A stretch of DNA of 64,000 nucleotides from Bacteriovoracia bacterium (GCA_046570105.1 JBKHVI010000001.1:115013-179012), one strand, 5' to 3'. Positions 13,650 through 40,392 are shown, counted from the first letter of the stretch. Numbers and translations are program-made. Notes: generated by a model not told the origin, from the sequence alone.

Positions 13650-13658
13650 AACTTTCGT

Positions 13659-22014: not shown

Positions 22015-22031
22015 TTGGCGCTGAAATTGCT
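22015..22031 (+). promoter_or_regulatory. Putative sigma54 -24/-12 promoter
   Basis: TTGGCGC-TGAAA-TTGCT matches TGGCAC-N5-TTGCW spacing. Confidence 0.55.
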
Positions 22032-22045
22032 CTACTAAGGCTACT

Positions 22046-24964
22046 ATGAGCAAAAATACAGAGACCCAAACGGGTGACTCTCTATTATCGAATGCCAATA
22101 ACGCTTCTTACGAAACGTTCGCTCAGCCTTTAACTGGGCAGCTCTTGCGTGCTCTCGAACTCAACGTGGTTTATCACCAGGGTCACGGCCAATGGCTCAC
22201 AACTGAAATAGCCGGCGAAACTCGTCGAGTGCTGGATATGACGGGTGGTTATGGTGCTAACTTACTCGGACACAAAAATGCGCGTATTGCTCGTATCGCA
22301 CAAGATTATTTAAGTGAAGGTGAACCCAATCTTATTCAAGGATCGAATCGCGCTAAGGCCGGTGAACTCGCACAACGAATAAGCGAAATTCTTTATGCTG
22401 AAACTGGTGAAGGTCCATGGATAACGACTCTTTCTAATTCTGGAACTGAAGCAGTTGAAGCTGCTCTTAAGCATTGCTTACTCGCTTTTGGAAAAAAACA
22501 ACAAGAACGCCTCCAAGATCTACAAAAAGGTCTGAACGAAGTTCATCTCTATGTACAAGAACTTGATGAAAACCAACTAGCTGCACTGACTCAAGATTGG
22601 CGCTACCGCCTGATCAATATGTGCGCTGATATTAAGGCTTCTGATAAACGCAAAGATTGGCTCCTGCACATGGCGCTTCAGACCCACGACATGATGGGCC
22701 TCATAGACCTAGTTCATGAGTTTAACAAACTCCAATTAAGTGAGATCCCTCTCACGGTATCACTTGAACGCGCCTACCATGGTAAAACAATGGGTGCACT
22801 TCATCTGACCCATAATCAGAAATATCGTTATCCGTTTTATGTGTCGGAAGGACAGAATCGCTTTTTGCCTCCCCACGCTGATGACGTACAACTTGAGAAA
22901 TTCTTTACCGACCTAAAATTTGATATTATTGAAATCGGCCTTCATCAAATAGGTCTCTTCTTTGGTAAAACAACTTTCACCCGTGTCGCTGGTTTATTTG
23001 TTGAACCCATTCAAGGTGAAGCGGGTGTCTATCCACTCGATGCAAACTATCTTGCTTTGTTGAAAAAATACTCTCTCAAAGACGGTTTCTCACTGGTGTT
23101 TGATGAGATTCAAGCTGGAATGTATCGCACCGGACTGATGGCTTCAGGTCACCACTGTCATGTCACAGCAGATATCTACTGTTTTTCAAAAACGCTTGGG
23201 GCAGGTGTTGCCAAAATCGGCGCTACGACAATTCATCATAAAAAATACCAAGAAGACTTCGGTCATCTCCACGCATCAACATTTGCCGAAGATGGTTATT
23301 CAGCAGCAGTGGCACTTGAAGCAATAGAAATTATCACTCAATCAGGGCATCTCACACGCGGTATGAGCGCTGGGGATAAAATCAAGAAAGGTCTAGAGAC
23401 TCTCCAAGATAAGTATCCACATCTGATCGCAGGTGTTCGAGGCAGAGGCCTCATGTTGGCATTCGAACTAAGTCCCAACTTGAGCAAGATTTGTTTTGAA
23501 TTTAATGTATTTAATGAAGCTGGCATGCTGGGATATCTCATTGCTTCAGCTATGCTTCATCGTGAAAATATTCGCATGACTCCTTCATTGTCTAATGGAG
23601 CGACACTTCGAGTTCAACCCAGTTTGTTTATCACTGACGAAGAAATTCTCTATTTCTTGATCGGCCTTGAGAAAATATTAATGCGTCTGGATGACGGCGA
23701 TTTCCGCTATTTCTTTCAACATTTATATCCCGACACCCCATTGGCCGATATCAAGGCCCAAGGTCTCACAACAGAATTCACACCCTCGGATAAACCCTTA
23801 GCGGTTTTCTTATGTCACTTAATTGATGCAGATCACGTGAAACGAGTTACTCCTGCATTCATACCTGTTAAAGATGCCACCTTAGAATCACGCTTGGGAC
23901 TTATGAAGCGTGCGATGGAATTTGGTATTTACCACGCCCAACCCCTTAAAGGTGCGGACGGCAGCGAGATCAATATTATCCTCATGGGTATTCCAACAAC
24001 CTCGCAGGAACTTAAGAAAAGTTTTACCGGTAAACAGCGCTCTGAGGTTATTGCCAAGGTTCAAAGAGCAGTCGATTTGGCAGCTGAACTGGGTGCTAAT
24101 ACTGTAGGCCTGGGTCAGTTTACTTCAATTGTATCAGGGAATGGTCTCTACCTTGATTCACATGGTATGAATCTCACCACCGGAAATTCATTTACTATCG
24201 AGCTGGCAATTCAAGCTGCACTCCGAGAAGCGCAAAACAAAAAAATAGATATCTCATCTTCTTCTGTAGGATTAGTAGGAGCAGCCGGAAATATCATTTC
24301 AGTTGCAGCCATGATTATGGCAGACAAGGCTTCACGATTAGTCTTGATACACCATTCTCCAATCGAGAAGAGCCCTAAACTTTTAGGAGTTGTTCGCTCG
24401 ATACTTAAAGAATCACTCGATTCCAGAGAGAACTCTGTATTTAACCAACTATTGAATGATCGATTAAGTATTGATGTTCTGAATTCGGACAAAGCCCTAA
24501 TAGGATGGCTCAATTCTGGTAATCAACACGATCTCATCCAGATTACCGACGATGTTACCGCTTTAAGTTCTTGTGAGATTATTATCACCGGTGCGAGTAG
24601 CGGTACCGGTTTCCTTGAACCTCAGCATTTTACCAAAAACGCGGTCGTAGTAGATGTCGCCGTTCCAGCGAATATCAAACCAGATGTTCTCGCTCGACTC
24701 AAAACTGAGCGACCAGATGTGACTTATTGTTTAGGTGGAGTGGCCAAACTTCCACACCTACAATCCATCGTCACACCGTTATTCCCACTCGATACCAATG
24801 AAAGCTTTGCTTGTATGGCAGAGACGTTTGCAATGGGTTTCCTCGGTAAGAAAAATTTAAAGCACATTGGTAATCTGACCAAAACCATGGTTAACCATAC
24901 AGCTCAATTCACTATGGATGCTGGCTTTACTCTAGGTTCTACAAAAACGAAGAGCTCTCTCTAA
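22046..24964 (+). CDS. Class III PLP aminotransferase fused to an acyl-ACP/thioester reductase (TamH-like architecture)
   Basis: N-terminal: NSGTEAVEAALK, AYHGKT, EPIQGEAG, FDEIQ, SK(PLP). C-terminal: GLGQFTSI, TTGN, VGAAGNI, DVAVP, FACMAE (acyl-ACP reductase-like). Confidence 0.85.
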   Translation: MSKNTETQTGDSLLSNANNASYETFAQPLTGQLLRALELNVVYHQGHGQWLTTEIAGETRRVLDMTGGYGANLLGHKNARIARIAQDYLSEGEPNLIQGSNRAKAGELAQRISEILYAETGEGPWITTLSNSGTEAVEAALKHCLLAFGKKQQERLQDLQKGLNEVHLYVQELDENQLAALTQDWRYRLINMCADIKASDKRKDWLLHMALQTHDMMGLIDLVHEFNKLQLSEIPLTVSLERAYHGKTMGALHLTHNQKYRYPFYVSEGQNRFLPPHADDVQLEKFFTDLKFDIIEIGLHQIGLFFGKTTFTRVAGLFVEPIQGEAGVYPLDANYLALLKKYSLKDGFSLVFDEIQAGMYRTGLMASGHHCHVTADIYCFSKTLGAGVAKIGATTIHHKKYQEDFGHLHASTFAEDGYSAAVALEAIEIITQSGHLTRGMSAGDKIKKGLETLQDKYPHLIAGVRGRGLMLAFELSPNLSKICFEFNVFNEAGMLGYLIASAMLHRENIRMTPSLSNGATLRVQPSLFITDEEILYFLIGLEKILMRLDDGDFRYFFQHLYPDTPLADIKAQGLTTEFTPSDKPLAVFLCHLIDADHVKRVTPAFIPVKDATLESRLGLMKRAMEFGIYHAQPLKGADGSEINIILMGIPTTSQELKKSFTGKQRSEVIAKVQRAVDLAAELGANTVGLGQFTSIVSGNGLYLDSHGMNLTTGNSFTIELAIQAALREAQNKKIDISSSSVGLVGAAGNIISVAAMIMADKASRLVLIHHSPIEKSPKLLGVVRSILKESLDSRENSVFNQLLNDRLSIDVLNSDKALIGWLNSGNQHDLIQITDDVTALSSCEIIITGASSGTGFLEPQHFTKNAVVVDVAVPANIKPDVLARLKTERPDVTYCLGGVAKLPHLQSIVTPLFPLDTNESFACMAETFAMGFLGKKNLKHIGNLTKTMVNHTAQFTMDAGFTLGSTKTKSSL

Positions 24965-26064
24965 ATTTCTTTTGAAAAGAGCGCGTAGCTCGAAATCATT
25001 TCTTTTTGGTCTTCACGATAACTTTTGAGTGCAGGACTATCTTCAGCGGTATAGCAGATATAAAGATGCGGCAGACTGATTGCTACAGGAATCGTCATCT
25101 TTTTAGCCACCAAACTTTGTATCCCTTTAAATTCTTGGCCATCCGGGGCCGGCAGACGACCCACATACATAATCAGCAAACGACTAAAATTTAATTTAAT
25201 TCGTAAGAAGACCCAAAGATTTAAAAGCGTCTTAGGAATTTTATTCATCCATCTCTGACGCTGCAGAAGAAGCGGTAAAGGATCCATGAAATTCACACAA
25301 AAAGCGACAGGCTTGCCATCATGTTCGATTATAAAAGCAAAAAGCGGACTAATAATGTAACGAAAGCCGGCATAAATTTTTTTGAAAGTCTCAAGCGGCA
25401 TCGGCTCATATTCCGGCATATCTTTAAACGTTTCTTGAAACAAACCATGAATGATCGTCATTTCATCTTCAAATCGTGACATGTCGATGCCACGTATATG
25501 CAAGCGATGTTCTGGTTTTTTTGCCGTACGAATCTCACCATACTGTTTTTTGCTTTTAAAAAATCTAATACGAAAAGTATCCCAGCGCTTAAGCGGCTTC
25601 ATTCCGACTTTTTCAAAAAAATCTAAATAATAACTATGCTGTTGAGGTTCGCTATAAAATGGACGAGCCTTGCCCCATGTTTTCCATCTATAACTCACAA
25701 AAAAGTGAAGATTAATTGGCCCCTTAATTCGCGTAGCCCCCAGCTCTCGCGCTGAACTTTCAACTTTCTCCCATAGTTTATAAAATACATTTTCATCGTT
25801 ATCACTTTCGATGAAACCAACTTTCGCGGTTTGTGGATTGAGGTTTGAAACGGCGACAAGCGCTCTTGCCACAATTTCACCCGATTCATAAATTGAAATT
25901 GCACGCCACTGATCCAGTGGAAAACTTTTTGAGTCTTCAAACAAATCTTGAAAGTTCGTGATGTCCTCATGAGGGACAGAATCTTTCGAATAGAGTTGGT
26001 TTTGCAGTTTTACCCATTCTAAAAAAAATGATTTATCCCAACTCGATATAATCTTAATTTCCAT
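24961..26064 (-). CDS. GNAT-like (YghO-type) hypothetical protein
   Basis: VAR..VGFIES..GATRIKGP..YLDFFEKVG pattern typical of this GNAT-like family. Confidence 0.6.
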   Translation of the reverse strand: MEIKIISSWDKSFFLEWVKLQNQLYSKDSVPHEDITNFQDLFEDSKSFPLDQWRAISIYESGEIVARALVAVSNLNPQTAKVGFIESDNDENVFYKLWEKVESSARELGATRIKGPINLHFFVSYRWKTWGKARPFYSEPQQHSYYLDFFEKVGMKPLKRWDTFRIRFFKSKKQYGEIRTAKKPEHRLHIRGIDMSRFEDEMTIIHGLFQETFKDMPEYEPMPLETFKKIYAGFRYIISPLFAFIIEHDGKPVAFCVNFMDPLPLLLQRQRWMNKIPKTLLNLWVFLRIKLNFSRLLIMYVGRLPAPDGQEFKGIQSLVAKKMTIPVAISLPHLYICYTAEDSPALKSYREDQKEMISSYALFSKEI

Positions 26065-27385
26065 CGGTCAGCTTCCTCATGACAACCACAACATTGCTAG
26101 TGGGCCGTAATGTGATTCCAGCTTCCACTGTTTGCTCAACTTCATTCTCAATCGACCAACGAAAGTTGGCCGAGAGGTGAGACAATATAAGTTTCGCCTC
26201 AACTTGAGCAAAAATTTTCCCTATACACATACGAGGTCCAAGCCCAAAGGGGAAATAGGAACCTGGCAGAACTTTTTCTTTAAGAGGTGGCAGAAATCTT
26301 TCTGGATAAAATTTCAATGAATCGTGCCAGAAATCCGGTGATCGCTGGGCAAAAAACGGCATTAAAAAAACGATATCCTTCTTTTTAAGCTCCAAGCCAT
26401 TTATCTTGATCGCCTTACTGGCCTGTCTCATAAAAGCCCAGACTGGGGGCCACAAACGCATTGCCTCTTCAGTGACTGCTAAATGCATATTGAGCTTATT
26501 AAAATTTGCCTCAATGAGTTGATCATTTTGCCAAAAGCTTTTGGACTCATCTTTAAGCACGTCTAGATATTTAGAATTCTGAGCTAGCAGTATCATCGTC
26601 CAGGCCATGGTATTGGTAATCGTTTCGTGGCCGGCCATCAAAATAGTTATAACTTCGTCTCGGATCTGTTGATCGCTCATCTGGTTGCCGTCTTCATCAC
26701 GCGTATCAACTAGGATTTGTAACAGATCATTTGATTGTTGGCGCCCGGAACGGCGATCTATCAAAAGACGCTTGATCAAATTATCAAATCTATCTCTTGC
26801 AGCATAAAACTCTTGGTGACTTGCCAGCGGCATCCACATGGGAGCTGAAACAACTGAGCGCACTCTCTTAATCAAAAAGTGCATCATATACTCAACATCT
26901 TTTAAGAATGTGGGTGCTTCTTGTGAAAGATCGAGCGCAAAAAGTGTGCGGGCAATAATTTTAAGCGTCAGTGCATTCATCTCAGCGTGAGCATTTATCT
27001 TTTGCCCATCGGCCCAGACGCAATGTTGCTCAATAATTTCTTGAATTGATGGAACTAAATTCATCATATGTTTAATGCCAAACACAGGACGCATTAAACG
27101 ATTTTGCTTCTTCCACAAATCACCTTCACTGGTAATGAGCCCTTCACCCAATAGAAGTTTCAGCTTTTGAAAAGTACGACCTTTAGCAAAAGATTCGGAA
27201 TTTTCCTGTAATACACCTAGGATATCGTCGGGATGAGACAAGAGATAGGCACGTTGATGGAGCATCCTCAGTTTTACTCTATGGCCAAACTCATGGTGGC
27301 ATTTATTTACAAAGGCCCAAGGATCACGAGCATACTCGCGCAAACTTCCCATTGGGCCTGATGCTTTTGGGCCTTTAATTTCCAC
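26054..27385 (-). CDS. Cytochrome P450 (likely GTG start at 27385)
   Basis: AGHET I-helix, EAMR (ExxR), PERF, FGLGPRMCIG heme motif. Confidence 0.96.
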   Translation of the reverse strand: MEIKGPKASGPMGSLREYARDPWAFVNKCHHEFGHRVKLRMLHQRAYLLSHPDDILGVLQENSESFAKGRTFQKLKLLLGEGLITSEGDLWKKQNRLMRPVFGIKHMMNLVPSIQEIIEQHCVWADGQKINAHAEMNALTLKIIARTLFALDLSQEAPTFLKDVEYMMHFLIKRVRSVVSAPMWMPLASHQEFYAARDRFDNLIKRLLIDRRSGRQQSNDLLQILVDTRDEDGNQMSDQQIRDEVITILMAGHETITNTMAWTMILLAQNSKYLDVLKDESKSFWQNDQLIEANFNKLNMHLAVTEEAMRLWPPVWAFMRQASKAIKINGLELKKKDIVFLMPFFAQRSPDFWHDSLKFYPERFLPPLKEKVLPGSYFPFGLGPRMCIGKIFAQVEAKLILSHLSANFRWSIENEVEQTVEAGITLRPTSNVVVVMRKLTDGN

Positions 27386-29894
27386 TGATCTCCACCTTTC
27401 CCTCATCAGCATTGAGGATAATATGGGGAATTCCTCTCAATTGATTAACGGCACCTCTAATTCCTACAACAGTAGGTATTCCTAACTCTCGGCCAATTAT
27501 GGCGGTGTGACTTAACAATGATCCCTTCTCAGAAATGAGGCCTCTGCATTGGGACATAATATAGACCCAAGCTGGGTCGGTGTGACGAGTGACAAGAATG
27601 CAATTGGAGAGATCTTCAATCTCAAGGGCTTCTTCTGGTGAATCTAAAACCAGTGGTCGGCCCTCAACTTTTCCTGGGGCTGCTGTTTGGCCAATTAACA
27701 AACCTTCAGACGGAGTGAGTTCAACCGATTTAAAGGGTGTCTCACCCACTGCAGTAACTAAGAATTCTGGAAATGGCCCTTGAGCCTCTTGCCAGCTTTT
27801 ATTTTTTTCAAGCAAGTCTGCTAATTCGGAATTGGTAATTTTCCCTTCCGCAAATCTTTGGTACTCTTCGAGAGAAATGTTGAAATAGTCTCGCCACTTA
27901 AAAATCTGAAACGAAGGATAATCTTTGCGTAACTGTTCAGCTGCGTGGGCCAGCATTTCACGAATCACATTATAGAACTGACCACGCAACAAACGCGTTT
28001 TTTCACGCCAGAAGATCGCTCGCTTCGTCACACTCCAACTTATCTTCCAAGCAAACTGCTTCGGGAGAGAGAAACTTTTCACATCAAACTGTGTTTTTGC
28101 TGGTTGCTTAAGGCCGGCGCTCATAATTCTTCGACGCATGAAACGCAGCAGGCGATAAAAATCTTTAGGAGATTGCCTTAAAGTAGGACTCTCTAATTTC
28201 AACTCTTCGAATGAACGTTCTCCGTACTGCTGAAGGAAACCTGCTAGCAATGCGGCTTCTTTCTTCCAGCCTTTCTGCTCTAGCTCGTTCCAGATGGGAT
28301 GATAGACATCTCCCCACTCAGGGGCGGTTGAAACTGAAGCTTCAAGATGCGGCCAAAAATCTTCGGGGATTTGAGACATGACTTTTTCTAGAAGGGCGAG
28401 TGGCTTCAACGATTCTACTTCATCACCAGTTTTCAGCATTGGCGCGAGAACATCTTCACCAAGTCCTTTGGTTTTTAGCAACGCAGCTAAAGCCTTTACT
28501 CCAATCATCAAAACCACATCGTTGATAATGGTTAAGCCAAACCCCAAGGGCCGGGTCAGAGTTTGGTGCAAGAGTCGCAAGGTTTCTTCTGAGGTTGAAG
28601 AGCCCATCAACCGATCATGGAGAATCTTCTTCTGAGCTTCTAAGCTTTCAGCGAAACGATCTAAAACGCGTTGATGAGTGCAAATAAAGGCGAACAGTTT
28701 GAAAGCAGCTTTAAGTTGTTCGAAAATATTTGGAGGATTGAGGATCATGGGAACATCCATGCCATCTCTTTTTCCCCCAATCATCCGGTGCCAATTTTCA
28801 ATATTCTTCTCACCGCCAGGTAGGGCAGCAATGACTGCATAATAATGTTCAAGATCGTAATAAAGATGATGGTTCACTTGCCCAATCAAGGACTGATAGT
28901 GAGGCATTAGTTTTTTCAAACGATCACTTGATGCACCCAAGATGATCGCCGACTCGGCAAAAACATTGCGATAAGCAATTTGCACAAAACTAGTGGTTAA
29001 TGGAGAAGTTACACCTGGGTACGACTCCGCAAGATTGGTATCTGTATATGATTTTAGCGGCGAGAATTCCTGAGTGATAGGTCGAACCTGTAAGAGATAG
29101 AGCATTTCTCCTTCAAAGGCGAACTCGATATCAACGGGATGCCGTAAACGCTTTTCAATTCTTAAAACTTCATGAACAATTTTCTGACGCTCTTCCAGTG
29201 TTAAACTTGCACTGGCCTGTAAATGAGCTTCCACTGGAAATCCTGATGTGCCTGAACCATCTGGGCTTGAACCCAATCGAGTTGTTTTAATGCTTAACCG
29301 CTCATCCAACATTTCATTAAGACGCGAATATCTCCAATGATCTGTTTCAACCAGCCCCGAAACAACTCCCTCGCCCACTCCCCAAGAAGCATCAATTACG
29401 ATATCGGCCGTGGGAATTATAGGTGAGCGCGAGAATGCGACTCCAGCTGCAATTGGGTCAAGCATCTTTTGGACAACAACGGCCATATGTAATTCATCAG
29501 TAATTCCCTTCTCGCGGCAATATACTTTAACTCGGTCAGAGTTAAGTGCTACATATGCAGCTTGAATTTTTTCTTTGAGATCTTTTGTTGTCACATAAAG
29601 ATACGTTTCAAATAAACCAGCAAAGCTCGCTGACTGACCATCCTCTCCTGTAACTGATGAGCGAACGGCGACCCAGCGGGCATCCCATTTTTTTACTTCT
29701 TTCTCTATGGCCTGCCAGCACTCTTCTGGAAACTGACCTTGTGAGTTTGTCCATTGTGAAACAGCAGTTGGGATCACCAGAAAAGGTGGAACGTTAGCAC
29801 CCAACTCAACTAGTTTTAAGAGTTGAGCACCTTTACCTCCGACGAGTGACTTTTCCGCGCGCGTTGGTGGAATTATCGGGAGTAGAGAGCTCAT
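27375..29894 (-). CDS. PEP-utilising dikinase-fold enzyme (ATP-grasp + central domain + C-terminal phosphohistidine domain; RPH/PigC-like), copy A
   Basis: GGKG, AVRSS..ED..SFAG, GEGVVSG, DIEFA, LQVRPIT, TDPAW and SHTAIIGRELGIP motifs; ATG 29894 overlaps the UbiA stop. Confidence 0.88.
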   Translation of the reverse strand: MSSLLPIIPPTRAEKSLVGGKGAQLLKLVELGANVPPFLVIPTAVSQWTNSQGQFPEECWQAIEKEVKKWDARWVAVRSSVTGEDGQSASFAGLFETYLYVTTKDLKEKIQAAYVALNSDRVKVYCREKGITDELHMAVVVQKMLDPIAAGVAFSRSPIIPTADIVIDASWGVGEGVVSGLVETDHWRYSRLNEMLDERLSIKTTRLGSSPDGSGTSGFPVEAHLQASASLTLEERQKIVHEVLRIEKRLRHPVDIEFAFEGEMLYLLQVRPITQEFSPLKSYTDTNLAESYPGVTSPLTTSFVQIAYRNVFAESAIILGASSDRLKKLMPHYQSLIGQVNHHLYYDLEHYYAVIAALPGGEKNIENWHRMIGGKRDGMDVPMILNPPNIFEQLKAAFKLFAFICTHQRVLDRFAESLEAQKKILHDRLMGSSTSEETLRLLHQTLTRPLGFGLTIINDVVLMIGVKALAALLKTKGLGEDVLAPMLKTGDEVESLKPLALLEKVMSQIPEDFWPHLEASVSTAPEWGDVYHPIWNELEQKGWKKEAALLAGFLQQYGERSFEELKLESPTLRQSPKDFYRLLRFMRRRIMSAGLKQPAKTQFDVKSFSLPKQFAWKISWSVTKRAIFWREKTRLLRGQFYNVIREMLAHAAEQLRKDYPSFQIFKWRDYFNISLEEYQRFAEGKITNSELADLLEKNKSWQEAQGPFPEFLVTAVGETPFKSVELTPSEGLLIGQTAAPGKVEGRPLVLDSPEEALEIEDLSNCILVTRHTDPAWVYIMSQCRGLISEKGSLLSHTAIIGRELGIPTVVGIRGAVNQLRGIPHIILNADEGKVEISGN

Positions 29895-30772
29895 CCCCAC
29901 CAGCCTGCCGTGATGAGAAAAAGTACCGTCCAGAGAATTTGATTTTCGGCCCAGAACTTTAAAGGCTTTTTTGTTTTGATTGTTCGCCAATAATTAAACA
30001 CCGGCAGCATGAGTCCTAAGAATCCTAAAGCATAGATGATATTCCAAAGCAAATGGCAGCCCATGGCTTGAATCAAATAACTACCCGTGGCAAGTACGAT
30101 CAGCTGAATGACTAAGGCCGCCAGGCTTGCTGGACGTGGGCCCCAGATTTTTGAATATGTGGTATAAGTGTTTTCTTCTTTAGGCATACGAATTTTTCGA
30201 CAGAGTTCCCAATTCGTCATCATCAATACCAGAGGGAGAATTGTATATATTTGCCATTGCTCAACGGCATATGAGGTTGTCTGATTAACTGTTAACAAAT
30301 ACATGAAATGAAAAATAACGATTGGATGATGAGTCACTAAAGCTAAAGGGAGTGACGCCTTCATCTGCTCTTCTCTGAAAAACCACTTGAGCATCAAGAA
30401 TGAATAAAGCAATGACCCCATCGCCATATACAGAACTTCTTCGGACCAAACTGAAACTGCTAAGGTGATAAAAACACAGAACCACCCTAAAACGAGTAGG
30501 TCTTTTTTGAGCACGCGTCCCGATGGTACTGGACGTTTCGGATAATTAATTTTGTCGTCTTCAAAATCTTTAAACTCATCTTTTACACGCAATAGAAGTG
30601 AGAAGAAGCATAAGGCAACACATCCTAACAGCGTGTGCCACTGAAAAGGATGATAAGGTGAGCCGCCTAATCTCCATGCGACAGTGAGCACCATAAATCC
30701 AAGCGAAAATGTGCCAAACCAACTCGACAGAGGATACATTTCACGCAAATAAATAAATATCCGCTTCAGCAT
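29891..30772 (-). CDS. UbiA-superfamily prenyltransferase-like membrane protein
   Basis: Asp-rich RVKDEFKDFEDDKINYPKRPVPSG motif; multiple TM helices. Confidence 0.8.
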   Translation of the reverse strand: MLKRIFIYLREMYPLSSWFGTFSLGFMVLTVAWRLGGSPYHPFQWHTLLGCVALCFFSLLLRVKDEFKDFEDDKINYPKRPVPSGRVLKKDLLVLGWFCVFITLAVSVWSEEVLYMAMGSLLYSFLMLKWFFREEQMKASLPLALVTHHPIVIFHFMYLLTVNQTTSYAVEQWQIYTILPLVLMMTNWELCRKIRMPKEENTYTTYSKIWGPRPASLAALVIQLIVLATGSYLIQAMGCHLLWNIIYALGFLGLMLPVFNYWRTIKTKKPLKFWAENQILWTVLFLITAGWWG

Positions 30773-30778
30773 AAGTTC

Positions 30779-31327: not shown

Positions 31328-31346
31328 GGTTCTATTATATGTGGAA

Positions 31347-32591: not shown

Positions 32592-33796
32592 GCCGCTGGT
32601 TATTTCTGATCAAATTCTCATGGCGCAATCTCGGCAGACAACCTTTGCGCACACTCATCATGGCACTGGGCCTTTGTTTTGGCACAGGCTATATTATTTT
32701 TGCCCTTAACTTCTCCGCCTCAGGCTCCAAAGAAATCGTCAACGATTTCCTCGCGCAATATACCGGTGATCATCAACTGGTCGCTCCTGGCTATTACCCA
32801 GATAATGACAAAAAGAAATTTGATCCACAAAAAACACTTCTTGAATCAAATTTTGAGAATTTTGATCGTACTCGCTACACTCAGCGAATAACTTTGCCAG
32901 TTTTCCTCTCTACTCCTAAAAAAACCCAAGGCACTCTACTTACAGGCCTTGTGCCTTCGCAAGAATTGCGTCTTTCAAATGTCACAAAAGCTCTCTCGCA
33001 AGGCCGCTTCTTAAGTGACGAAGGTCGTAATGAATTGCTGCTTGGAGAAAAGCTGGCTCGCAAGATTGGAGTGACTTTGGGCGGAGAAGTCGCCGGTATC
33101 TCACAAGGCCTTGATGGTTCAACCGCAGTAGATTTATTTACCGTCGTTGGGTTGATGAATTTTGGTGGCGGTGACATGGAGGAGTATGTAGCCTTCACCT
33201 CACTGGCGAGCACGCAAGAGTTTGGTGTCTTTCCGCAAGGTGGATTTCATCAATGGGTGAGTTTTGGCACTTTTGAGTCAAAAGTTCCAAAAGCACCCGA
33301 GGGCACTGAGCTTGTTCCGTGGGATGTAATCCTGCCTGAAATTAACGGTTCGATTCGTTTCATCGATATTTTCACTTGGATCGTGGCCGTCATCATTGTG
33401 GTAGTGATTAGTCTTGGAATGGGTAACACCTTGATGATTACCTTTCTCGAACGGCAGAAAGAGTTTTACTCTCTGAACGTCATCGGCGCACGCTCTTCTT
33501 GGATTGCCGTTTCACTTGCTTTTGAAGTCCTCTTCTTAGGCATTATTGGCATTGGTACTGGGGTGATCTTAGGATTCTTAGTCACGACCCTTTTCCACTA
33601 CTACCCTATTAGCCTTAAACTCTTTACCGGTGGCAAAGCGATTATGATGGGTGGAATGGCCATCATTCCCAAGATTCGACTATCTCACTATTCTCATTAT
33701 TACTGGCAAGCACCACTCCTGGTGTTTAGCTTTTTGTCTTTGAGCCTCATCCTGCCGATTCATAGGATTATTCAAAGGAGCCGTCGTGCTGATTGA
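32588..33796 (+). CDS. ABC transporter permease (LolC/E, MacB/FtsX family)
   Basis: SWRNLGRQPLRT and NTLMITFLERQKEF..IGA motifs. Confidence 0.87.
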   Translation: MSRWLFLIKFSWRNLGRQPLRTLIMALGLCFGTGYIIFALNFSASGSKEIVNDFLAQYTGDHQLVAPGYYPDNDKKKFDPQKTLLESNFENFDRTRYTQRITLPVFLSTPKKTQGTLLTGLVPSQELRLSNVTKALSQGRFLSDEGRNELLLGEKLARKIGVTLGGEVAGISQGLDGSTAVDLFTVVGLMNFGGGDMEEYVAFTSLASTQEFGVFPQGGFHQWVSFGTFESKVPKAPEGTELVPWDVILPEINGSIRFIDIFTWIVAVIIVVVISLGMGNTLMITFLERQKEFYSLNVIGARSSWIAVSLAFEVLFLGIIGIGTGVILGFLVTTLFHYYPISLKLFTGGKAIMMGGMAIIPKIRLSHYSHYYWQAPLLVFSFLSLSLILPIHRIIQRSRRAD

Positions 33797-34466
33797 AATG
33801 CAAAACCTCACTAAAACCTATGGTGAAGGCGATCAACTGGTTCATGCCACTCGAGGCGTGAATTTAGAAATCGTCGAAGGTGATTTTATCGCGGTGGTAG
33901 GCCCATCTGGCTCAGGTAAAACGACTCTTCTGAACTTGCTCGCAGGCCTTATTGGACCCACCTCCGGAACAATTAAACACCGTAACAAAGAAATTCAGAC
34001 TCTCTCTCTCGAAGAGAGAACAGCGCATCGTCTCGCCAACATGGGATTTGTTTTCCAAGACTACCAACTGCTTCCAGTTCTAACCGCGAGAGAAAATGTT
34101 GAACTACCTTTACAGATGCGTGGCGAGCCTCAAAATGAAATAAATCAAAAAACCAAATGGGCCCTTGAGCAAGTCGGTCTTGGCACCATGATGAATCGCT
34201 ATCCCAAGCAGCTCTCCGGTGGACAACAGCAGCGTGTCGCGATTGCTCGTGCCGTTGCCGGAAAACCATCACTTATCCTCGCCGATGAACCTACCGCCAA
34301 CCTTGATTCAAAAACCGCCCAAGATATCATTGATTTGTTTAAACGACTCAATCATGAATATAAACTGACATTTGTCTTCTCTACCCATGATCCTCGTCTG
34401 ATTGATCAGGTAAAGCGTGTGATAAGAATTAAAGATGGTCAGACTCAAGAAGGAAAAGAGCTATGA
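33786..34466 (+). CDS. ABC transporter ATP-binding protein (LolD-like)
   Basis: [26 protein letters not shown] and STHD motifs. Confidence 0.93.
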
Positions 34467-35200
34467 AATTGAAAAAAGAAATTTTCTTTTGTGTCGCTGT
34501 TGGCGGTGCTCCGGTTAAGACAGCTGATCAGTGGCTTAAATACATGGAAGACCAAATGCGCGGAGATCAATCCAAAGCAGAACTCACCATGTTGATCAAA
34601 ACACCCAGCTGGGAGCGCCAGCTTGAAATTCGCTCCGACGTCAAAGGTAAAGACGAGGCATTGACCTTCATTGATGCTCCGGCAAAAGAAAAAGGCACCG
34701 GCACACTTCGTTTGGGCAACAACATGTGGAACTACTTTCCAAAACTCAAACGCAAAGTCACTGTCTCACCTTCCATGTTACTCGCTAACTGGATGGGTTC
34801 AGACTTTACGAACGATGACCTTCTAAAAGCCTCGAGCATGTATGAAGACTACTCTCATACCTTCACTCCCGACCAAACTGTCGATGGTAAGACTTACAAA
34901 GTAATCAATAATCTTGCGAAGTCCGATGCCAAAGTAATCTGGCCTCGCATTGAAACGCTCGCCGACAAAAAAGATTGTCTCCCTCGTTTTCATCGTTATT
35001 ACGATAAAAAAGGCGAACTTATTCGCACATTGGCACTTTCAGAAATAGCTACTTTTGATGGCCATAAAGTTCCCAAGCGTTGGGTGATGACACCCCATAA
35101 GAAAGAAGGCCAACAAACTGAGATGATTTATAAGAAGCTCCAGTTTAAAGTCGACTTCAAATCAAGCCACTTTTCATTGCAAAACTTAACAGGCAACTAG
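34463..35200 (+). CDS. Outer-membrane lipoprotein-sorting (LolA-like) protein
   Basis: PAKEKGTGTL..MWNYFP..WMGSDFTNDD signature; follows lolCDE-like genes. Confidence 0.82.
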   Translation: MKLKKEIFFCVAVGGAPVKTADQWLKYMEDQMRGDQSKAELTMLIKTPSWERQLEIRSDVKGKDEALTFIDAPAKEKGTGTLRLGNNMWNYFPKLKRKVTVSPSMLLANWMGSDFTNDDLLKASSMYEDYSHTFTPDQTVDGKTYKVINNLAKSDAKVIWPRIETLADKKDCLPRFHRYYDKKGELIRTLALSEIATFDGHKVPKRWVMTPHKKEGQQTEMIYKKLQFKVDFKSSHFSLQNLTGN

Positions 35201-36412
35201 ATGTTCAAGCTGCTTATTTTATTTCTTCTGCCGATCTCCGCTTTCGCACTTCCTAAGTACGAGAAAGGTGATTTTAGCTTAGAAGTCTCTGGCAACGTTG
35301 AAGGACAAGCTCGCAAACTCTGGAATCCCACTTCAGCGAAACGTTTTCCCCTGCTGCAAGATTGGAAAGAGTCTGAATATCAAATGGGGATGGCGAACCT
35401 CAACATCAGAGCGGAATTTAAAGAGTCTCGTATTGAAGCTAATTGGTTTGGCCGAGTCGCCAACTCACCTCTCTACGGCGATGGTTTTGAAGCTCCTAAG
35501 CTGATCACATTTCCAAGAAAACTCGTAGCGCGAGATGTATTTCGCTTAGATTACTCACGCCAAGATGGTGACCAGCAAATCGATTCAGTACTTAACAAGT
35601 TTTACTACGAACTTGATGGTGAAGACTCGCGTTTTGCCTTTGGTCGTCTTTTCATCAACTACGGCGCCGGCGAAGTCTTTAATCCTGTTAATCCCTTCAA
35701 TCAACCATTGGGCCTGGCGGCGCAAAGTAATATCGCTCAAGGTAATGATGGAATGAAGGCGAGCTTCTATCCCAGCGATCGTCTCAATCTCAATTTCTAT
35801 CTCTTAGGTAATAAACGCCAAGAAGATTACGAAAATCAAATCACACGAACATTATGGCTTCATGGTGATTACCGCATGGGCGATAGTCTTCAATTTGATT
35901 TTGTAATGGGTGAAGATCAGAAGAGAAACAAGATTGGTGGTCAAGTCAGCTATATCCTGGGCGAAGCCATGATCTTTGCACAGCTGCTTGAATCCTCTGC
36001 TTTTATCGATGGTAAATCGAGCCAGCAGATTAGCGATATTCTTCTTGGCTACGATCATCAATTCACCGCCGCGTGGCACTTTCGCCTTGAACTCGGTCAT
36101 CAAGAGCGCGATCAAGTTTTACTCGAGGCTGACCCAGCGGCTCTAGGCGATCGTCTACTTCCTTACGAATACTTCATCGCCATCGCCCAAACCTATGAAG
36201 TCCATCCGCTGGTCAAAACCTCTGCGACTTTCATCCACGACTTCAAAACTCGCTATGTCTATGGTCTGGGCCGTGTCACCTGGTCTGTCTTTAACGATAT
36301 CGAATGGGATTTCTTCGCCAATGTGCCGATTTATTGGATCGAAGATGAATCTAATCTCGTACAAAAGATTTTTCCGACTGAAGTGGGAACGAGTCTGAGA
36401 GTCTTTTTCTAA
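35201..36412 (+). CDS. Outer-membrane beta-barrel partner of the Lol-like exporter
   Basis: Signal peptide, FGR..INYG...FNPVNPF motif, C-terminal VFF. Confidence 0.72.
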   Translation: MFKLLILFLLPISAFALPKYEKGDFSLEVSGNVEGQARKLWNPTSAKRFPLLQDWKESEYQMGMANLNIRAEFKESRIEANWFGRVANSPLYGDGFEAPKLITFPRKLVARDVFRLDYSRQDGDQQIDSVLNKFYYELDGEDSRFAFGRLFINYGAGEVFNPVNPFNQPLGLAAQSNIAQGNDGMKASFYPSDRLNLNFYLLGNKRQEDYENQITRTLWLHGDYRMGDSLQFDFVMGEDQKRNKIGGQVSYILGEAMIFAQLLESSAFIDGKSSQQISDILLGYDHQFTAAWHFRLELGHQERDQVLLEADPAALGDRLLPYEYFIAIAQTYEVHPLVKTSATFIHDFKTRYVYGLGRVTWSVFNDIEWDFFANVPIYWIEDESNLVQKIFPTEVGTSLRVFF

Positions 36413-36419
36413 AAAAATC

Positions 36420-36749
36420 TTAGATATAGACCGCGATCTGTTGAGCCTCATCGTCTTCAATCACAAGACTAATCTTCACTTTCATGCCCATAGCTTTTGC
36501 ATATTTAGCGAGTGTTGAAATTTTCATATCTTTACGACTTTCAATTTTCGAGACCTCAGGCTGAGTAAGCCCCTTAAGTTCAGTCTGATTCAACCCAATA
36601 AACTCTCTTGCCATCTTTAGACGAAGTTCGCTCGCTCTGATTTGGCCTTTTTTAACCGCACGTTTGAAAGATTTGTCACCCATCGTTTTTTTGGCATGTG
36701 AAAAAAAATCGGGATTATATTTGCTAGCTTTTTTCTTCATAGTTCTCAT
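36420..36749 (-). CDS. XRE/HigA-like HTH antitoxin
   Basis: LKMAREFIGLNQ..TQPEVSKIE..DMKISTL..YAKAMG; lies downstream of the toxin. Confidence 0.82.
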   Translation of the reverse strand: MRTMKKKASKYNPDFFSHAKKTMGDKSFKRAVKKGQIRASELRLKMAREFIGLNQTELKGLTQPEVSKIESRKDMKISTLAKYAKAMGMKVKISLVIEDDEAQQIAVYI

Positions 36750-36753
36750 CCTG

Positions 36754-37107
36754 TTAAGTTTTCGATCTATTTCCCAGGTAGCGTAAATAAATCTTCTCAC
36801 TCTGCTCAATCATCGTTTTGTAGAATTTCTTATCTCCACTGCTTGATTTATTCCCACCGATAAGAAGTACTCCATTTCGATTTGGATCAAATACATAAAA
36901 AATTCGTATAACCCTTTCTCTGCTATTGAATCGTAACTCTTTTAAATTAGAAATTACGCTGGCCCTAAGTGTATCTGCATAAGGTCTTCTGAGTTCAGGC
37001 CCTAGTTCTCTTAAAAGTTCCACATGCTCTAATATATCTTCCTGAAGCCGTTTATCTGATCCGTCAAACCAGTCTTGGAACTCTGGAGTTTGCACAATAT
37101 TCCACAC
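36754..37107 (-). CDS. RelE/HigB (Gp49-like) type II toxin; start ATG 37113 or GTG 37107
   Basis: WNIVQTPEFQDWF, GPELRRPYADTL..S..NLKELR and RIFYVFDP..LLIGGNK motifs. Confidence 0.88.
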   Translation of the reverse strand: MWNIVQTPEFQDWFDGSDKRLQEDILEHVELLRELGPELRRPYADTLRASVISNLKELRFNSRERVIRIFYVFDPNRNGVLLIGGNKSSSGDKKFYKTMIEQSEKIYLRYLGNRSKT

Positions 37108-37113
37108 TCTCAT
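36754..37113 (-). CRISPR. not CRISPR - see CDS call below
   Basis: No CRISPR repeat here; disregard this entry, the region is the toxin CDS listed next. Confidence 0.
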
Positions 37114-37147
37114 TATACCCCCAAAAGCATATGCATTCAAATGCATA
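37112..37147 (-). promoter_or_regulatory. Sigma70 promoter with overlapping palindromic operator of the TA operon
   Basis: Minus-strand TTGAAT (37140-37135)-N17-TATAAT (37117-37112); palindrome TATGCAT-tcaa-ATGCATA at 37130-37147. Confidence 0.7.
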
Positions 37148-37301
37148 CCAGAAACGGTCGCAAGCTGTGATAATGTCGTTAGTGAACGTCATAACCCACC
37201 ACTTTTGAGCTTTTACGCTGGCATGCGGGAAGAAGCTCATTTTATTGGCAGAAAATGTGATTTTTTTCGATTAGGAAACTAATCTTTAGAAGTATTCATA
37301 C

Positions 37302-39563
37302 TTATTTCAAAATCTCCACCACACCCGTTCTACCATCGACACGCACGCGCATGCCCGTCTTAAGTTTCTTGGTGGCACCCGTGAGATTTAGCACGGCTGG
37401 AATGCCGTATTCGCGGCCAATAACAGCCGCATGAGATAATACCCCACCCACCTCAGTGATAATCGCTGAAGCGCGTGCCATGGTGGGTGTCCAGCCAGGG
37501 TCAGTGAATTTTGTGACGAGAACTTCACCGCTCATAAGAAGGTTCGCCTCTGATAAATCCAAAACGACCCGTACCACTGCCTCGACCTCACCACTTGAGC
37601 AACCAATGCCTTGTAGCCCTGAGGTATCTTTTGAAATCGTCAGTGCACCACCGAACTCGTTCGGTGCTTCAAAGTTGCGATAGCCTTTCAAAAGCAAATC
37701 TCTTTTGCGCCATTCTTTTTTATTGGGGATATCTTGGCTCACAAATTCATCGAACTTTAAAAGATGAATCTCGCCCGCCTTTAGGCCCAAGCGTCTCTCA
37801 CCTTCAAGCAGCATTTTCCTGACCAGGTAATACGCTCTTGTGGAGTACGCCCGCATGCTCTCTCTTTGCGTTAGGTAATTACGCGCACGTAGTAACTGTC
37901 GCTTCACTTGATTTTTCTCAAACAGATTCCAGCTCCAGCGAGTCTGAAGTGAGCGATCTAGCCGTTCCCATTCATCCTGCCAATTTTCATTTGAATGATG
38001 TTGAGCCGGTTTGACGTCTTTAAGCATTTCCAGAACACGAACTGGATTTTCACCCCAGCGTGGCACGGTTAAATCAAGTTCCACGTCGCCATGATGATAA
38101 TGCCGCTCGAGAAATTGATTCAGGCTTTCTTGAAAGCTCGCTTTGCCTTCATGCTTCTTGAGATTTTCCAGATCACTCAGAATATCCATGTGACTCATCT
38201 TATCTAGATTTGAGAGCAGTTTGAGAAGGTCACAACCCGGATTAAGCTTTGTGATCTTATTTTTAAGATCGGTTTGAAAATTGGAATTGTTATAAATTGT
38301 GCGAAAGTAACTCGTTTCAGTACGAAATTGATACGCATCGACCTCGCGAACTAATTGCCAAAAATCGCGGTCATTGAGTTCCTGACAACTCTCAACTCTT
38401 GGTCTCAGCCTTTGATCTTGTCCTTCAAACCAAGCTGGAAATTTTTCCAACATGCGTTCACAGTTTTGGTATTCAAATGTCACTGCTGCTAGCGCGTTTA
38501 ATGCAACTAAGACGGATTGCGGAGTGATCCCCGTTTTCTCTGGGCCCTTTGCCCCGTAGTCTTTGGTAATACCTAGACCCTGATCAAAAACTTTTTCATC
38601 GTAACCAGGAATGCGCTTCAAAGCTTCTTTAACCACTCCTGCATTCCAAAATCCTCTTCCATAGAGATGATACATCCATTGATAAGCATCCCCTGAGCGC
38701 AGGAGCGAGATGTCTTCAAAATAGCGGCCCATAGAAGATTGCAGTGCACGTTGATAGAGTGAGTACATCATCGGGGGACAAACACGTGCTGATATGCCGC
38801 CATCTTTTAAATCAGCATTGGTGAGTTCCGGCACATCTCTGCGCCAGGCCACATGGGTAACAGGACGAGCTTGCAGAATCCAAATCTTGCCGGCGGGATC
38901 AATCGCCCATTCGATATCTTGCGGATGACCGTAGTGAGTTTGAATTTCCAGTGCAAGCCGAGTGAGAACTTTTAATTCATTATCAGAGAGCCCGGTCTTT
39001 TCATCATTAATCTCCGCCGATACAACTACTTCTTCACTCCAATCATAGCGATAGCGCGAAGGAGTTACATGTCCTGACACCAATCTCTCTCCAAGACCGG
39101 CACAGACTTCGATATAAAAAATTTCTTCCTGTCCCAAGACGGGATCAATCGTGAACAGCACCCCCGCTCTTTCGGCTGGCACCATTTTCTGCACCATCAC
39201 GCGCATGCTCTTTTCTAACTCGTCTTTCGAGATAGTCTGTCCGTGAGTTTGAAGATAGTCACGCACACGCTCAGATTGACTGGAGTTAAAACACTCTTCA
39301 ATGGCATTTTTGAGTTGCGCCTCATCCTGGATTCGCAAGATCGATTCGTACATACCAGCAAAGCTGGCATCTCCCAGATCCTCAATGGTGCCCGACGAGC
39401 GAGCGGCGACGGGATATCCCCCGATTTTGGCGACCTCTTGGGCTAAGTCACGAGCCTCGCCCCTCGAAGGAACAATAAAAAAGGGCGGAACGGGCATATG
39501 TATCGCCTCGAGCTCCCTTAAGCGCCCTGCCTTACTACCCGCATCATGAAAAACTGATACCAT
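37302..39563 (-). CDS. PEP-utilising dikinase-fold enzyme (RPH/PigC-like), copy B
   Basis: GSKA, AARSS..ED..SFAG, GLGERLVSG, QDIEWA, LQARPVT, TDPGW and SHAAVIGREYGIP motifs. Confidence 0.88.
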   Translation of the reverse strand: MVSVFHDAGSKAGRLRELEAIHMPVPPFFIVPSRGEARDLAQEVAKIGGYPVAARSSGTIEDLGDASFAGMYESILRIQDEAQLKNAIEECFNSSQSERVRDYLQTHGQTISKDELEKSMRVMVQKMVPAERAGVLFTIDPVLGQEEIFYIEVCAGLGERLVSGHVTPSRYRYDWSEEVVVSAEINDEKTGLSDNELKVLTRLALEIQTHYGHPQDIEWAIDPAGKIWILQARPVTHVAWRRDVPELTNADLKDGGISARVCPPMMYSLYQRALQSSMGRYFEDISLLRSGDAYQWMYHLYGRGFWNAGVVKEALKRIPGYDEKVFDQGLGITKDYGAKGPEKTGITPQSVLVALNALAAVTFEYQNCERMLEKFPAWFEGQDQRLRPRVESCQELNDRDFWQLVREVDAYQFRTETSYFRTIYNNSNFQTDLKNKITKLNPGCDLLKLLSNLDKMSHMDILSDLENLKKHEGKASFQESLNQFLERHYHHGDVELDLTVPRWGENPVRVLEMLKDVKPAQHHSNENWQDEWERLDRSLQTRWSWNLFEKNQVKRQLLRARNYLTQRESMRAYSTRAYYLVRKMLLEGERRLGLKAGEIHLLKFDEFVSQDIPNKKEWRKRDLLLKGYRNFEAPNEFGGALTISKDTSGLQGIGCSSGEVEAVVRVVLDLSEANLLMSGEVLVTKFTDPGWTPTMARASAIITEVGGVLSHAAVIGREYGIPAVLNLTGATKKLKTGMRVRVDGRTGVVEILK

Positions 39564-40088: not shown

Positions 40089-40111
40089 TTAAAGAATTAG
40101 GAGATTAGACC

Positions 40112-40366: not shown

Positions 40367-40392
40367 TTTTCGGGATTATTTGAGTTATTTTC

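Follow-up and report, generated by a model that had tools for sequence, protein, structure and literature searches.

We analysed a stretch of 64,000 nucleotides (nt) of Bacteriovoracia bacterium DNA (GCA_046570105.1 JBKHVI010000001.1:115013-179012), hereafter the window, and describe in it a candidate lipid biosynthesis cluster with a dedicated Lol-like exporter. All coordinates are those of the whole window. Open reading frames (ORFs) were scanned with Pfam and NCBIfam; the Pfam scans of the window took in 63 of the 91 listed ORFs of at least 90 amino acids (aa), those overlapping a longer ORF being left out. The region from 22046 to 39563 holds twelve pathway genes and one inserted toxin-antitoxin pair. 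Every gene that a first-pass annotation had listed here was recovered, densely packed and with overlapping stops and starts. The start of the cluster, set at 22015 in that annotation, moves to 22046, where the first ORF begins.

The first gene (22046-24964, plus strand) encodes a TamH-like two-domain enzyme of 972 aa, a transaminase joined to a thioester reductase (Aminotran_3, E 7e-58). Convergent with it is a five-gene minus-strand operon which, read in the direction of transcription, encodes a CarS-like enzyme (30779-31327, longest ORF to 31354; PF01864), a UbiA-like membrane transferase of 293 aa (29891-30772; PF01040), dikinase A (27375-29894, longest ORF to 29990; PPDK_N 2e-52, PEP-utilizers 7e-20), a cytochrome P450 of 452 aa (26054-27412; PF00067, E 2.5e-71) and a protein of 367 aa assigned by its predicted fold to the tandem-GNAT acyltransferases (24961-26064). 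The tight coupling that had been proposed for this operon is evident at its junctions, which run from 6 nt down to overlaps: 6 nt separate the CarS-like and UbiA-like genes, the UbiA-like stop overlaps the dikinase A start as ATGA, and the P450 and 367-aa genes overlap by 11 nt.

Divergent from the CarS-like gene runs a plus-strand exporter operon of five genes, with successive overlaps of 4, 11, 4 and 0 nt. These encode two MacB/LolC-E-type permeases, permease 1 (31284-32591, start uncertain with candidates at 31320-31356; MacB_PCD 1.9e-10, FtsX 4.4e-6) and permease 2 (32588-33796; MacB_PCD 1.2e-8, FtsX 6.3e-8), an ATP-binding cassette (ABC) ATPase of the LolD/MacB/DevA type (33786-34466; ABC_tran 3.5e-37), a periplasmic LolA-like carrier of 245 aa (34463-35200; PF17131, 4.6e-47, 160.5 bits) and, judged by predicted fold, a porin-like outer-membrane beta-barrel of 403 aa (35201-36412). 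The starts of the CarS-like gene (ATG at 31327, minus strand) and of permease 1 are arranged head to head, at most some 30 nt apart or overlapping, and the control region common to the two divergent operons must therefore be very short. Scans for regulatory sites between 21000 and 40500 were uninformative: promoter-like sites numbered 18, compared with 30.1 expected from shuffled sequence, and terminator-like sites numbered 26, compared with 18.4. The last pathway gene, for dikinase B (37302-39563, minus strand, 753 aa; PPDK_N 5e-50, PEP-utilizers 1.6e-24), is convergent with the exporter operon and divergent from rplU. Between it and the barrel gene lies the minus-strand toxin-antitoxin pair, composed of a helix-turn-helix (HTH) antitoxin-like gene (36420-36809; weak HTH matches) and a Gp49/HigB-like toxin gene (36754-37146; PF05973, 3e-19). 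Since the pair is present in just one of 39 related loci (L002), we regard it as a recent insertion that lies outside the pathway.

The TamH-like enzyme combines an N-terminal class-III omega-transaminase dependent on pyridoxal phosphate (PLP) with a C-terminal thioester reductase of the acyl-ACP (acyl carrier protein) reductase (AAR) type. Its best solved relatives, CrmG (5dds) and PigE (4ppm), are aldehyde-aminating enzymes; the C-terminal 412 aa, scanned alone, matched the PigE N-domain (E 1.6e-22) and the cyanobacterial acyl-ACP reductase TIGR04058 (E 1.9e-7). An alignment of 18 orthologues shows no variation at the PLP lysine K382, at G745 and G748 of the GxxGxxG motif or at the C-terminal cysteine C923, which corresponds to the catalytic Cys of TamH. 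According to PMC9594044, PtTamH converts C12-ACP to dodecylamine; compared by the published features of that protein, the window enzyme has the same domain order (omega-transaminase, AAR-type reductase) and motifs.

The 367-aa protein had no Pfam or NCBIfam match, and a sequence search of solved structures returned nothing below E 0.5. Its structural model (predicted local distance difference test score, pLDDT, 86.4) contains two GNAT folds in one chain and matched in Foldseek the tandem GNAT 7q3a (MAB_4324; E 8e-13) and also 5kf1, glucosamine N-acetyltransferase, MshD, Eis and FemX, with E-values for tandem-GNAT structures from 8e-13 to 1e-9. Its atlas neighbours are N-acetyltransferase clusters (score 0.96). 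The earlier label 'GNAT-like' is thus borne out by the model, from which we conclude that the protein is, in predicted fold, a tandem GNAT acyltransferase. The P450 carries the heme motif FGLGPRMCIG, and among solved structures it comes closest to the sesquiterpene oxidase CYP170A1 (3dbg, E 7e-49), with CYP97A3, CYP51 and BM3 next; these nearest relatives act on terpenoids and fatty acids.

Both dikinases consist of an ATP-grasp domain (PPDK_N), a central domain and a swivel phospho-histidine domain, and are without the phosphoenolpyruvate (PEP)/pyruvate TIM barrel. The swivel histidine is kept in each (LLSHTAIIGRE in dikinase A, VLSHAAVIGRE in dikinase B). Dikinase A found its best NCBIfam match in NF004881 (399 bits, cut-off 883) and its best solved relative in the Listeria rifampin phosphotransferase (RPH; 5hv2/5fbs). 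The PigC and RedH models gave 226 and 187 bits for dikinase A and 249 and 250 bits for dikinase B, against cut-offs of 1300 and 1350, and the RPH equivalog NF041857 gave 199 and 253 bits against 999. A rapidly built maximum-likelihood tree of 32 sequences, with neither bootstrap nor outgroup, split A-type dikinases, including those from other phyla, from B-type ones with a support of 100 in the Shimodaira-Hasegawa-like approximate likelihood ratio test (SH-aLRT).

The UbiA-like protein reaches PF01040 (40.8 bits, gathering cut-off 34.2) and falls short of more specific models: PRK13592 gave 139 bits against 443, and the digeranylgeranylglyceryl phosphate (DGGGP) synthase models NF009521 and NF009522 gave 23.8 against 296 and 21.4 against 353 bits. 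A profile of the Bdellovibrionota members identified DGGGP synthase (6m31, E 2e-5) as the best solved relative, then chlorophyll synthase. Enzymes of the UbiA superfamily carry a first Asp-rich motif, (N/D)DxxDxxxD, and a second, DxxxD. Thirteen sequences of the UbiA-like clade, drawn from five phyla, all share the residues R62, D65-E-F-K-D69, D73, P78, R80, G85, F131, F132, E189, R192, K193 and G211. The first motif is therefore present, as D65-E-F-K-D69-x-x-x-D73; where the second would be expected, the clade has ExxRK (E189-x-x-R192-K193) and no Asp pair.

With the profile, an exhaustive search of 1.84 billion cluster representatives found 2866 relatives when the limit was set at E<=1e-3, and 2100 and 1184 when it was tightened to E<=1e-10 and E<=1e-30, the last being representatives of 50%-identity clusters. 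The window protein itself had 155 relatives at E<=0.001 among 2270 candidates, and all organism names attached to them were Bacteriovoracaceae, Bacteriovoracia, Bdellovibrionales or Peredibacter; the genome that contains the window is of the Bacteriovoracaceae type. Eight of the best 150 representatives were scanned for additional domains. Seven had been picked because they exceed the typical 290-330 aa or, for one of them, because it was the top match; the eighth (P0134, 310 aa) lies within that range. These yielded three fusions of an AMP-binding domain to the UbiA-like domain (820-855 aa) and one of the UbiA-like domain to PPDK_N (475 aa, probably cut). No longer, fused relatives were found in a 90%-clustered collection, a result that is weak evidence by the tool's own account. 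An apparent UbiA-dikinase fusion in Sericytochromatia (ORFs of 1076-1184 aa in L044-L046) was rejected as a reading-frame artefact, because the UbiA match lies in another frame than the long ORF and Pfam finds no UbiA domain there.

The CarS-like enzyme reaches PF01864 (40.9 bits, cut-off 22) and scores 54.5 bits on the equivalog NF003114, for which the cut-off is 148. The sole solved relative of its profile is CDP-archaeol synthase (5guf, E 2.6e-6; CDP, cytidine diphosphate), and its invariant residues are K51, R54, E102, N105, S106, K109, R110, D131, D134 and H165. Twenty-three longer relatives came from the profile search, and the domains of seven were re-scanned. Six are fusions of a CDP-alcohol phosphatidyltransferase to the CarS-like domain and one adds an AMP-binding domain to these two; eight join a PlsC-type acyltransferase to the CarS-like domain, and one is annotated as a PlsC-type acyltransferase alone. 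Single cases carry an AMP-binding domain, a fatty-acyl-reductase-type NAD_binding_4 domain or a UbiA-like domain beside the CarS-like one, and four are CarS-like alone. In total, CDP-OH_P_transf occurs in seven of the 23 and AMP-binding in two. The UbiA part of the CarS-like/UbiA-like fusion belongs to the clade of the window protein (hhalign 99.7%, E 4.5e-27). Because fusions and neighbours put the CarS-like domain between an enzyme that attaches a chain to a phosphorylated backbone (PlsC-type or UbiA-like) and a CDP-alcohol transferase, we place it where a lipid-phosphate cytidylyltransferase would act. Links of the UbiA-like enzyme run in two directions, to the dikinase and to the CarS-like enzyme. 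The public proteins P0199, P0216, P0241, P0195, P0295, P0286, P0290 and P0293 exemplify fusions of AMP-binding with UbiA-like, UbiA-like with PPDK_N, CarS-like with UbiA-like, AMP-binding with CDP-alcohol transferase and CarS-like, AMP-binding with CarS-like, and CarS-like with an acyl-reductase domain.

Components of the exporter resemble the Lol system and stay below its specific models. Permeases 1 and 2 gave 58 and 50 bits on lolCE TIGR02212 (cut-off 362) and the ATPase 223 bits on LolD TIGR02211 (cut-off 307.75). The carrier begins with a short signal-like segment in which Cys10 is invariant. It showed no match to PF03548 (LolA) and belongs instead to PF17131 (LolA_like); its solved relatives 9tp6 (2e-20), 3bk5, 4z48 and 3buu are structural-genomics proteins without assigned function. 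The 403-aa protein matched no family in the Pfam and NCBIfam scans. It has a signal peptide and a C-terminal Phe, and its all-beta model (pLDDT 78.4) matched in Foldseek 16-18-strand porins such as OmpU, OccK/OprD and chitoporin at E of about 1e-11, which agrees with its former description as an outer-membrane barrel. A complex predicted between the barrel (residues 18-403) and the LolA-like protein (22-245) scored 0.57 (runs 0.55, 0.57 and 0.60) against 0.01 for the best control, with at least 90% of contacts agreeing between runs and partner pLDDT of 81-82. In calibration, 116 of 157 solved complexes reached the mark, as did 2 of 215 mismatches; scores at or below 0.60 included 18 of the 157 solved complexes and both passing mismatches, and by the tool's own warning such passes are more often wrong than right unless the guess was already likely. 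The prediction thus lends weak support to a contact between barrel and carrier.

To place the cluster in a wider context, one genome per species was scanned, which gave 295 pattern matches, 52 encoding a relative, in 51 loci. Of these, 39 are of the Bdellovibrionota type and 12 are distant, and 18 window proteins were compared with all of them by tblastn. The genes do occur together in other genomes, a point on which the first-pass annotation had depended: the eleven genes other than the P450 are found together in 16 of the 39 related loci, 13 of which have the P450 too, and the incomplete loci are mostly short, cut contigs. Nineteen loci had complete 10-kb flanks. In this set the UbiA-like gene was present in all 19, dikinase A, the CarS-like gene and the GNAT gene in 18 each, every one of the five exporter genes in 16, the TamH-like gene and dikinase B in 15 each, the P450 in 13 and the toxin-antitoxin pair in none. 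With this distribution, the P450 is probably an accessory tailoring oxygenase. The flanks are conserved as well: lgt (20257-21063, minus strand) and, upstream of it, a 266-aa gene of no known family (21085-21885, minus strand) lie on one side in 13 of the 19 full-flank loci, and rplU-obg on the other.

Several loci within Bdellovibrionota keep the genes together in another order, and these carry more weight as evidence of linkage than the syntenic arrangement does. In L036, the UbiA-like gene, dikinase A, permease 1 and permease 2 follow one another on one strand with a 1-nt junction, and in L033 dikinase B, the CarS-like gene and the UbiA-like gene stand in a row. Halobacteriovorax-type loci (L027, 7177-14157, genes assigned by Pfam; L029, 1006-7981, inferred from matching ORF sizes) have the TamH-like and UbiA-like genes beside an overlapping operon of psd, dikinase B and the CarS-like gene, followed by an MMPL transporter and a fatty-acid desaturase that replace the Lol-like exporter. 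Dikinase B and the CarS-like gene thus share an operon in L027, L029 and L033. A desaturase gene adjoins the UbiA-like gene in L034 and L035, and the TamH-like gene lies directly upstream of it in L027, L028 and L032.

Outside this group, the UbiA-like clade with ExxRK is found beside a dikinase of the same subtype as dikinase A in Actinomycetota, Sericytochromatia, Clostridia and Peribacteria. Of the 12 distant loci, 11 have a dikinase as the next gene downstream of the UbiA-like one, and the twelfth, L050, ends 1.3 kb after the UbiA-like gene. Like dikinase A, the three dikinases that were scanned, those of L039, L049 and L051, best match NF004881, with 465-694 bits compared with 399 for the window protein. 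In freshwater Actinomycetota (Micrococcales, Rhodoluna; L039 at 9327-15530, L041 and L043), a gene for a 216-aa protein is followed by the UbiA-like gene, the dikinase, a CDP-alcohol phosphatidyltransferase gene (Pfam-confirmed in L039 and L041) and two small genes, and in all three a CarS-like gene follows on the opposite strand; this arrangement looks like a compact form of the core pathway. The 216-aa neighbour was considered as a tandem GNAT and found to be unrelated. Both Clostridia loci (L049, 5479-13400; L051, 4832-13209) have, upstream of the UbiA-like/dikinase pair, a DUF3419 gene, which we take to belong to the family of the betaine-lipid enzyme BtaA, and both also encode an AMP-binding enzyme, as does the Sericytochromatia locus L044. 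Relatives of the tandem GNAT adjoin the UbiA-like gene in L044 (BLASTP 1e-4), L051 (hhalign E 2.3e-12) and the Pseudobdellovibrionaceae contig L050 (hhalign E 1.9e-15). The neighbours of the pair vary by phylum and are all lipid-related. Taking the rearranged forms in Bdellovibrionota together with the pair in 11 of 12 distant loci, the grouping exceeds what chance would give.

From these data we propose that the genes direct the synthesis of a membrane lipid that bears phosphate, is CDP-activated and differs from an ordinary diacylglycerol phospholipid, and that they also supply a dedicated inner-to-outer-membrane machine for it, a reading to which we would give roughly an even chance of being right. 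The best reading of the product class would be an ether or amino lipid made by a CDP-activated pathway of the phospholipid type. In the steps that homology and gene context suggest, the TamH-like enzyme would convert a fatty acyl thioester (acyl-ACP or acyl-CoA) via the aldehyde to a long-chain primary amine, the tandem GNAT would N-acylate an amine of the growing lipid and the P450, where present, would hydroxylate a chain. In Bacteriovoracaceae, these three enzymes would thus furnish and modify a chain that bears an amine, is N-acylated and is hydroxylated. A dikinase of the rifampin-phosphotransferase type would phosphorylate a hydroxyl of the lipid or its backbone, using ATP via phospho-histidine. 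The UbiA-like enzyme, whose gene is translationally coupled to dikinase A, would add a prenyl or other alkyl chain to the phosphorylated intermediate, in a step resembling that of DGGGP synthase in archaea. The CarS-like enzyme would then turn the lipid phosphate into a CDP-lipid ready for its head group, with dikinase B acting at or near this step. Finally, the LolCDE-like transporter would extract the lipid from the inner membrane, the LolA-like protein would carry it across the periplasm and the porin-like barrel would receive it at the outer membrane.

An earlier proposal for this DNA was a phosphorylated, prenylated or aminated lipid. The data support it in part. Its lipid part is strengthened by the lipid genes near relatives (psd, MMPL, desaturase, CDP-alcohol transferase, BtaA-like) and by the domain fusions; prenylation and delivery to the outer membrane are only suggested, as is amination, the TamH-like gene being absent from four loci that cover its position. 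The accompanying picture of a natural-product cluster has to be modified. Because the locus has been vertically kept between lgt and rplU-obg and its core spans several phyla, we prefer an envelope-lipid pathway to a sporadic cluster.

We also consider, tentatively and as a minority possibility, a more specific version of this proposal. According to it, an unrecognised multi-phylum core, consisting of the UbiA-like enzyme with ExxRK, the RPH-type dikinase and the CarS-like enzyme, would make a new class of polar lipid via a kinase-primed, alkylated or prenylated, CDP-activated non-acylglycerol backbone, as a bacterial counterpart of the archaeal route from DGGGP synthase to CarS. Bacteriovoracaceae would have added the fatty-amine maker and a Lol-like route that places the lipid in the outer membrane.

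A number of observations weigh against the lipid pathway as we have drawn it. No specific NCBIfam equivalog was reached by any of the proteins, with wide margins throughout, so substrates are assigned by analogy only. The similarity of the UbiA-like protein to DGGGP synthase is weak (E 2e-5) and confined to the region of the first Asp-rich motif, and ExxRK at the site of the second means that its donor may not be a prenyl diphosphate. The scans of 63 of the 91 window ORFs showed no isoprenoid-diphosphate synthase, CDP-alcohol transferase, glycerol-phosphate dehydrogenase or geranylgeranylglyceryl phosphate (GGGP) synthase. Four loci that cover its position (L004, L007, L016 and L018) have no TamH-like gene, and six of the 19 full-flank loci have no P450, so that neither amine formation nor hydroxylation is obligatory at the locus. 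Gene order inside Bacteriovoracaceae is weak evidence alone, because the flanking housekeeping genes are also syntenic, and the transport direction and outer-membrane destination are suggested by family resemblance only.

Among other explanations, a tambjamine-like logic without pyrroles fares best, and we still consider it unlikely. Here the dikinases would condense the fatty amine from the TamH-like enzyme with an aldehyde or ketone, perhaps a terpenoid that the UbiA-like enzyme makes and the P450 oxidises, to give a secreted enamine or imine lipid, perhaps for predation. TamH-like and PigC-like proteins stand together in the window, like TamH and TamQ in the tam cluster. The dikinases score alike against PigC/RedH (187-250 bits) and RPH (199-253 bits), the closest solved relative of the P450 is a sesquiterpene oxidase, and the adjacency of the TamH-like and UbiA-like genes in three loci would fit as well. 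Such a condensation, however, leaves no role for the CarS-like enzyme or for its fusions with CDP-alcohol transferase and PlsC-type domains, and the UbiA-like/dikinase pair persists in phyla and loci without a TamH-like gene. The P450 is missing from about a third of the full-flank loci (six of 19), and the PigC/RedH scores are far under their cut-offs of 1300-1350.

Activation of a prenol, which we judge a little less probable again, would assign the same core enzymes differently. The CarS-like protein would be a CTP-dependent kinase of prenols or fatty alcohols (of the dolichol- or phytol-kinase type), the dikinase would add a second phosphate, and the UbiA-like enzyme would use the alkyl or prenyl diphosphate to modify an acceptor, for instance the fatty amine or its N-acyl derivative. 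Plant VTE5, VTE6 and VTE2 provide a parallel for this scheme. It would account for the UbiA-like/dikinase genes being the tightest pair (the ATGA overlap, adjacency in 11 of 12 distant loci, one fused protein), one source gives two CarS-like relatives the name 'dolichol kinase', and the scans of 63 of the 91 window ORFs showed no prenyl-diphosphate synthase. However, a CDP-alcohol phosphatidyltransferase forms part of seven of the 23 longer CarS-like relatives and is encoded beside the module in the Actinomycetota loci, which implies a need for a CDP-activated intermediate and not for a kinase product. The only solved structure found with the CarS-like profile is that of CDP-archaeol synthase, and we know of no dikinase of this family that forms a diphosphate ester.

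That there is no common pathway at all, the Lol-like genes being the lineage's ordinary lipoprotein sorting near lgt and the neighbouring enzymes unrelated and held by conserved chromosome order, would agree with the synteny of the whole region (lgt and the 266-aa gene in 13 of 19 full-flank loci, rplU-obg opposite) and with LolD as the closest relative of the ATPase (223 bits against 307.75), but is very improbable given that in L036 the permeases directly follow dikinase A on the same strand in an order unlike that of the window, that Halobacteriovorax-type loci swap the ABC system for an MMPL transporter beside the same enzymes, that the permeases (58 and 50 bits against 362) and the PF17131 carrier are not canonical Lol proteins, and that the enzyme core recurs across phyla and in fusions.

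We take the locus to be a lipid biosynthesis cluster with a dedicated exporter, and there is a real chance that its core is a new lipid pathway. If this is true, a widespread enzyme trio makes an undescribed class of lipid, the profile of the UbiA-like enzyme alone accounting for 1184 cluster representatives, and a dikinase is used in lipid synthesis, which would be unusual. The archaeal-style pairing of UbiA and CarS enzymes would bear on how distinct bacterial and archaeal lipid pathways are. Bacteriovoracaceae would possess, as a second Lol-like route to the outer membrane, one dedicated to a particular substrate, and the cluster would give access to the envelope chemistry of predatory bacteria whose prey are other bacteria. 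The question is directly testable, because at least one carrier, Peredibacter sp. HCB2-198 (locus L009), is a cultured strain with a complete genome.

Some further features of the window were recorded. For the 266-aa protein beside lgt, an atlas look-up gave no lead, with every score below 0.9. On the other flank, a gap of about 290 nt (40088-40418) between rplU and the listed obg ORF leaves room for a small gene; rpmA usually sits between these two genes. A strong terminator-like hairpin at 40393-40418 overlaps the TTG start listed for obg, and the true start is therefore probably further downstream. An IS200-type Y1 transposase gene lies at 10451-11077, and a Mutator-family transposase gene at 63546-63998 runs off the window end. 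Large ORFs at 6183-8555, 12347-14846 and 53072-56773 (790, 411, 395, 568, 280 and 405 aa) had no Pfam match at E<=1e-4, and the last of these regions is followed by a PrkA-type kinase gene (56667-58985).

Finally, we compared the locus with known systems. Searches of the full-text literature, subscription-only papers aside, returned no description of the gene set, in keeping with the earlier view of an uncharacterised cluster, and none of a UbiA-like/dikinase lipid module, the matches for 'UbiA' with 'dikinase' being unrelated genome surveys. As in the tambjamine YP1 (Pseudoalteromonas tunicata TamA/TamH/TamQ) and prodigiosin (PigE/PigC) pathways, proteins of dikinase architecture accompany the TamH-like enzyme. 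In contrast to those pathways, the window scans (63 of 91 ORFs) showed no pyrrole genes and no TamA-like adenylation-ACP protein: for 4-methoxy-2,2'-bipyrrole-5-carbaldehyde (MBC), Pfam found no adenylation, ketosynthase, carrier-protein or proline-oxidising acyl-CoA dehydrogenase gene. The partners are instead the UbiA-like, CarS-like and GNAT proteins and the Lol-like exporter. The exclusion of a prodiginine or tambjamine pathway, made already at first pass, thus holds, the PigC, RedH and PigE models giving 187-263 bits against cut-offs of 850-1350.

The route from DGGGP synthase to CarS in archaea shares with the window an adjacent pair of UbiA-family and CarS-family membrane enzymes, and supplies the nearest solved relatives of both window profiles. 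A fused CarS-like/UbiA-like protein exists, and relatives of the window enzymes are fused or adjacent to CDP-alcohol phosphatidyltransferases. The two differ in that the window proteins miss the equivalogs, ExxRK replaces the second Asp-rich motif in the UbiA-like enzyme, and no glycerol-1-phosphate (G1P) dehydrogenase appeared among the 63 scanned ORFs. Moreover, the archaeal pathway is without a dikinase, whereas the window-type module has it as an obligatory partner. Villanueva et al. (PMC7852524) report no CarS in the bacteria to which they ascribe archaeal-type lipid genes. With RPH, the window dikinases share the three-domain architecture and the swivel histidine; the RPH equivalog score is not reached, and they sit in a lipid operon and not in a resistance context, dikinase A falling in an uncharacterised NF004881-like group that travels with the UbiA-like gene.

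Like LolCDE-LolA-LolB, the exporter operon has two FtsX/MacB-type permeases, an ATPase and a LolA-fold periplasmic protein; it differs in being without LolB, in its PF17131 carrier and in not reaching the equivalogs. It also resembles Borrelia BBJ23-29, a cluster for which PMC13078400 predicts computationally an outer-membrane barrel, a LolA-like protein and a MacB-like ABC transporter, proposed to move a non-polar ligand to the outer membrane; both systems are known from computation only. Set beside these two, the window operon ends in a 16-18-strand porin-like barrel, not an Omp85 protein, and is divergently coupled to lipid enzymes. Judged by its profile scores, then, the locus is not a prodiginine or tambjamine cluster, an archaeal ether-lipid pathway, a rifampin-resistance determinant or a canonical Lol system, each of which is missed at the equivalog level, and it contains a recognisable part from every one of them.

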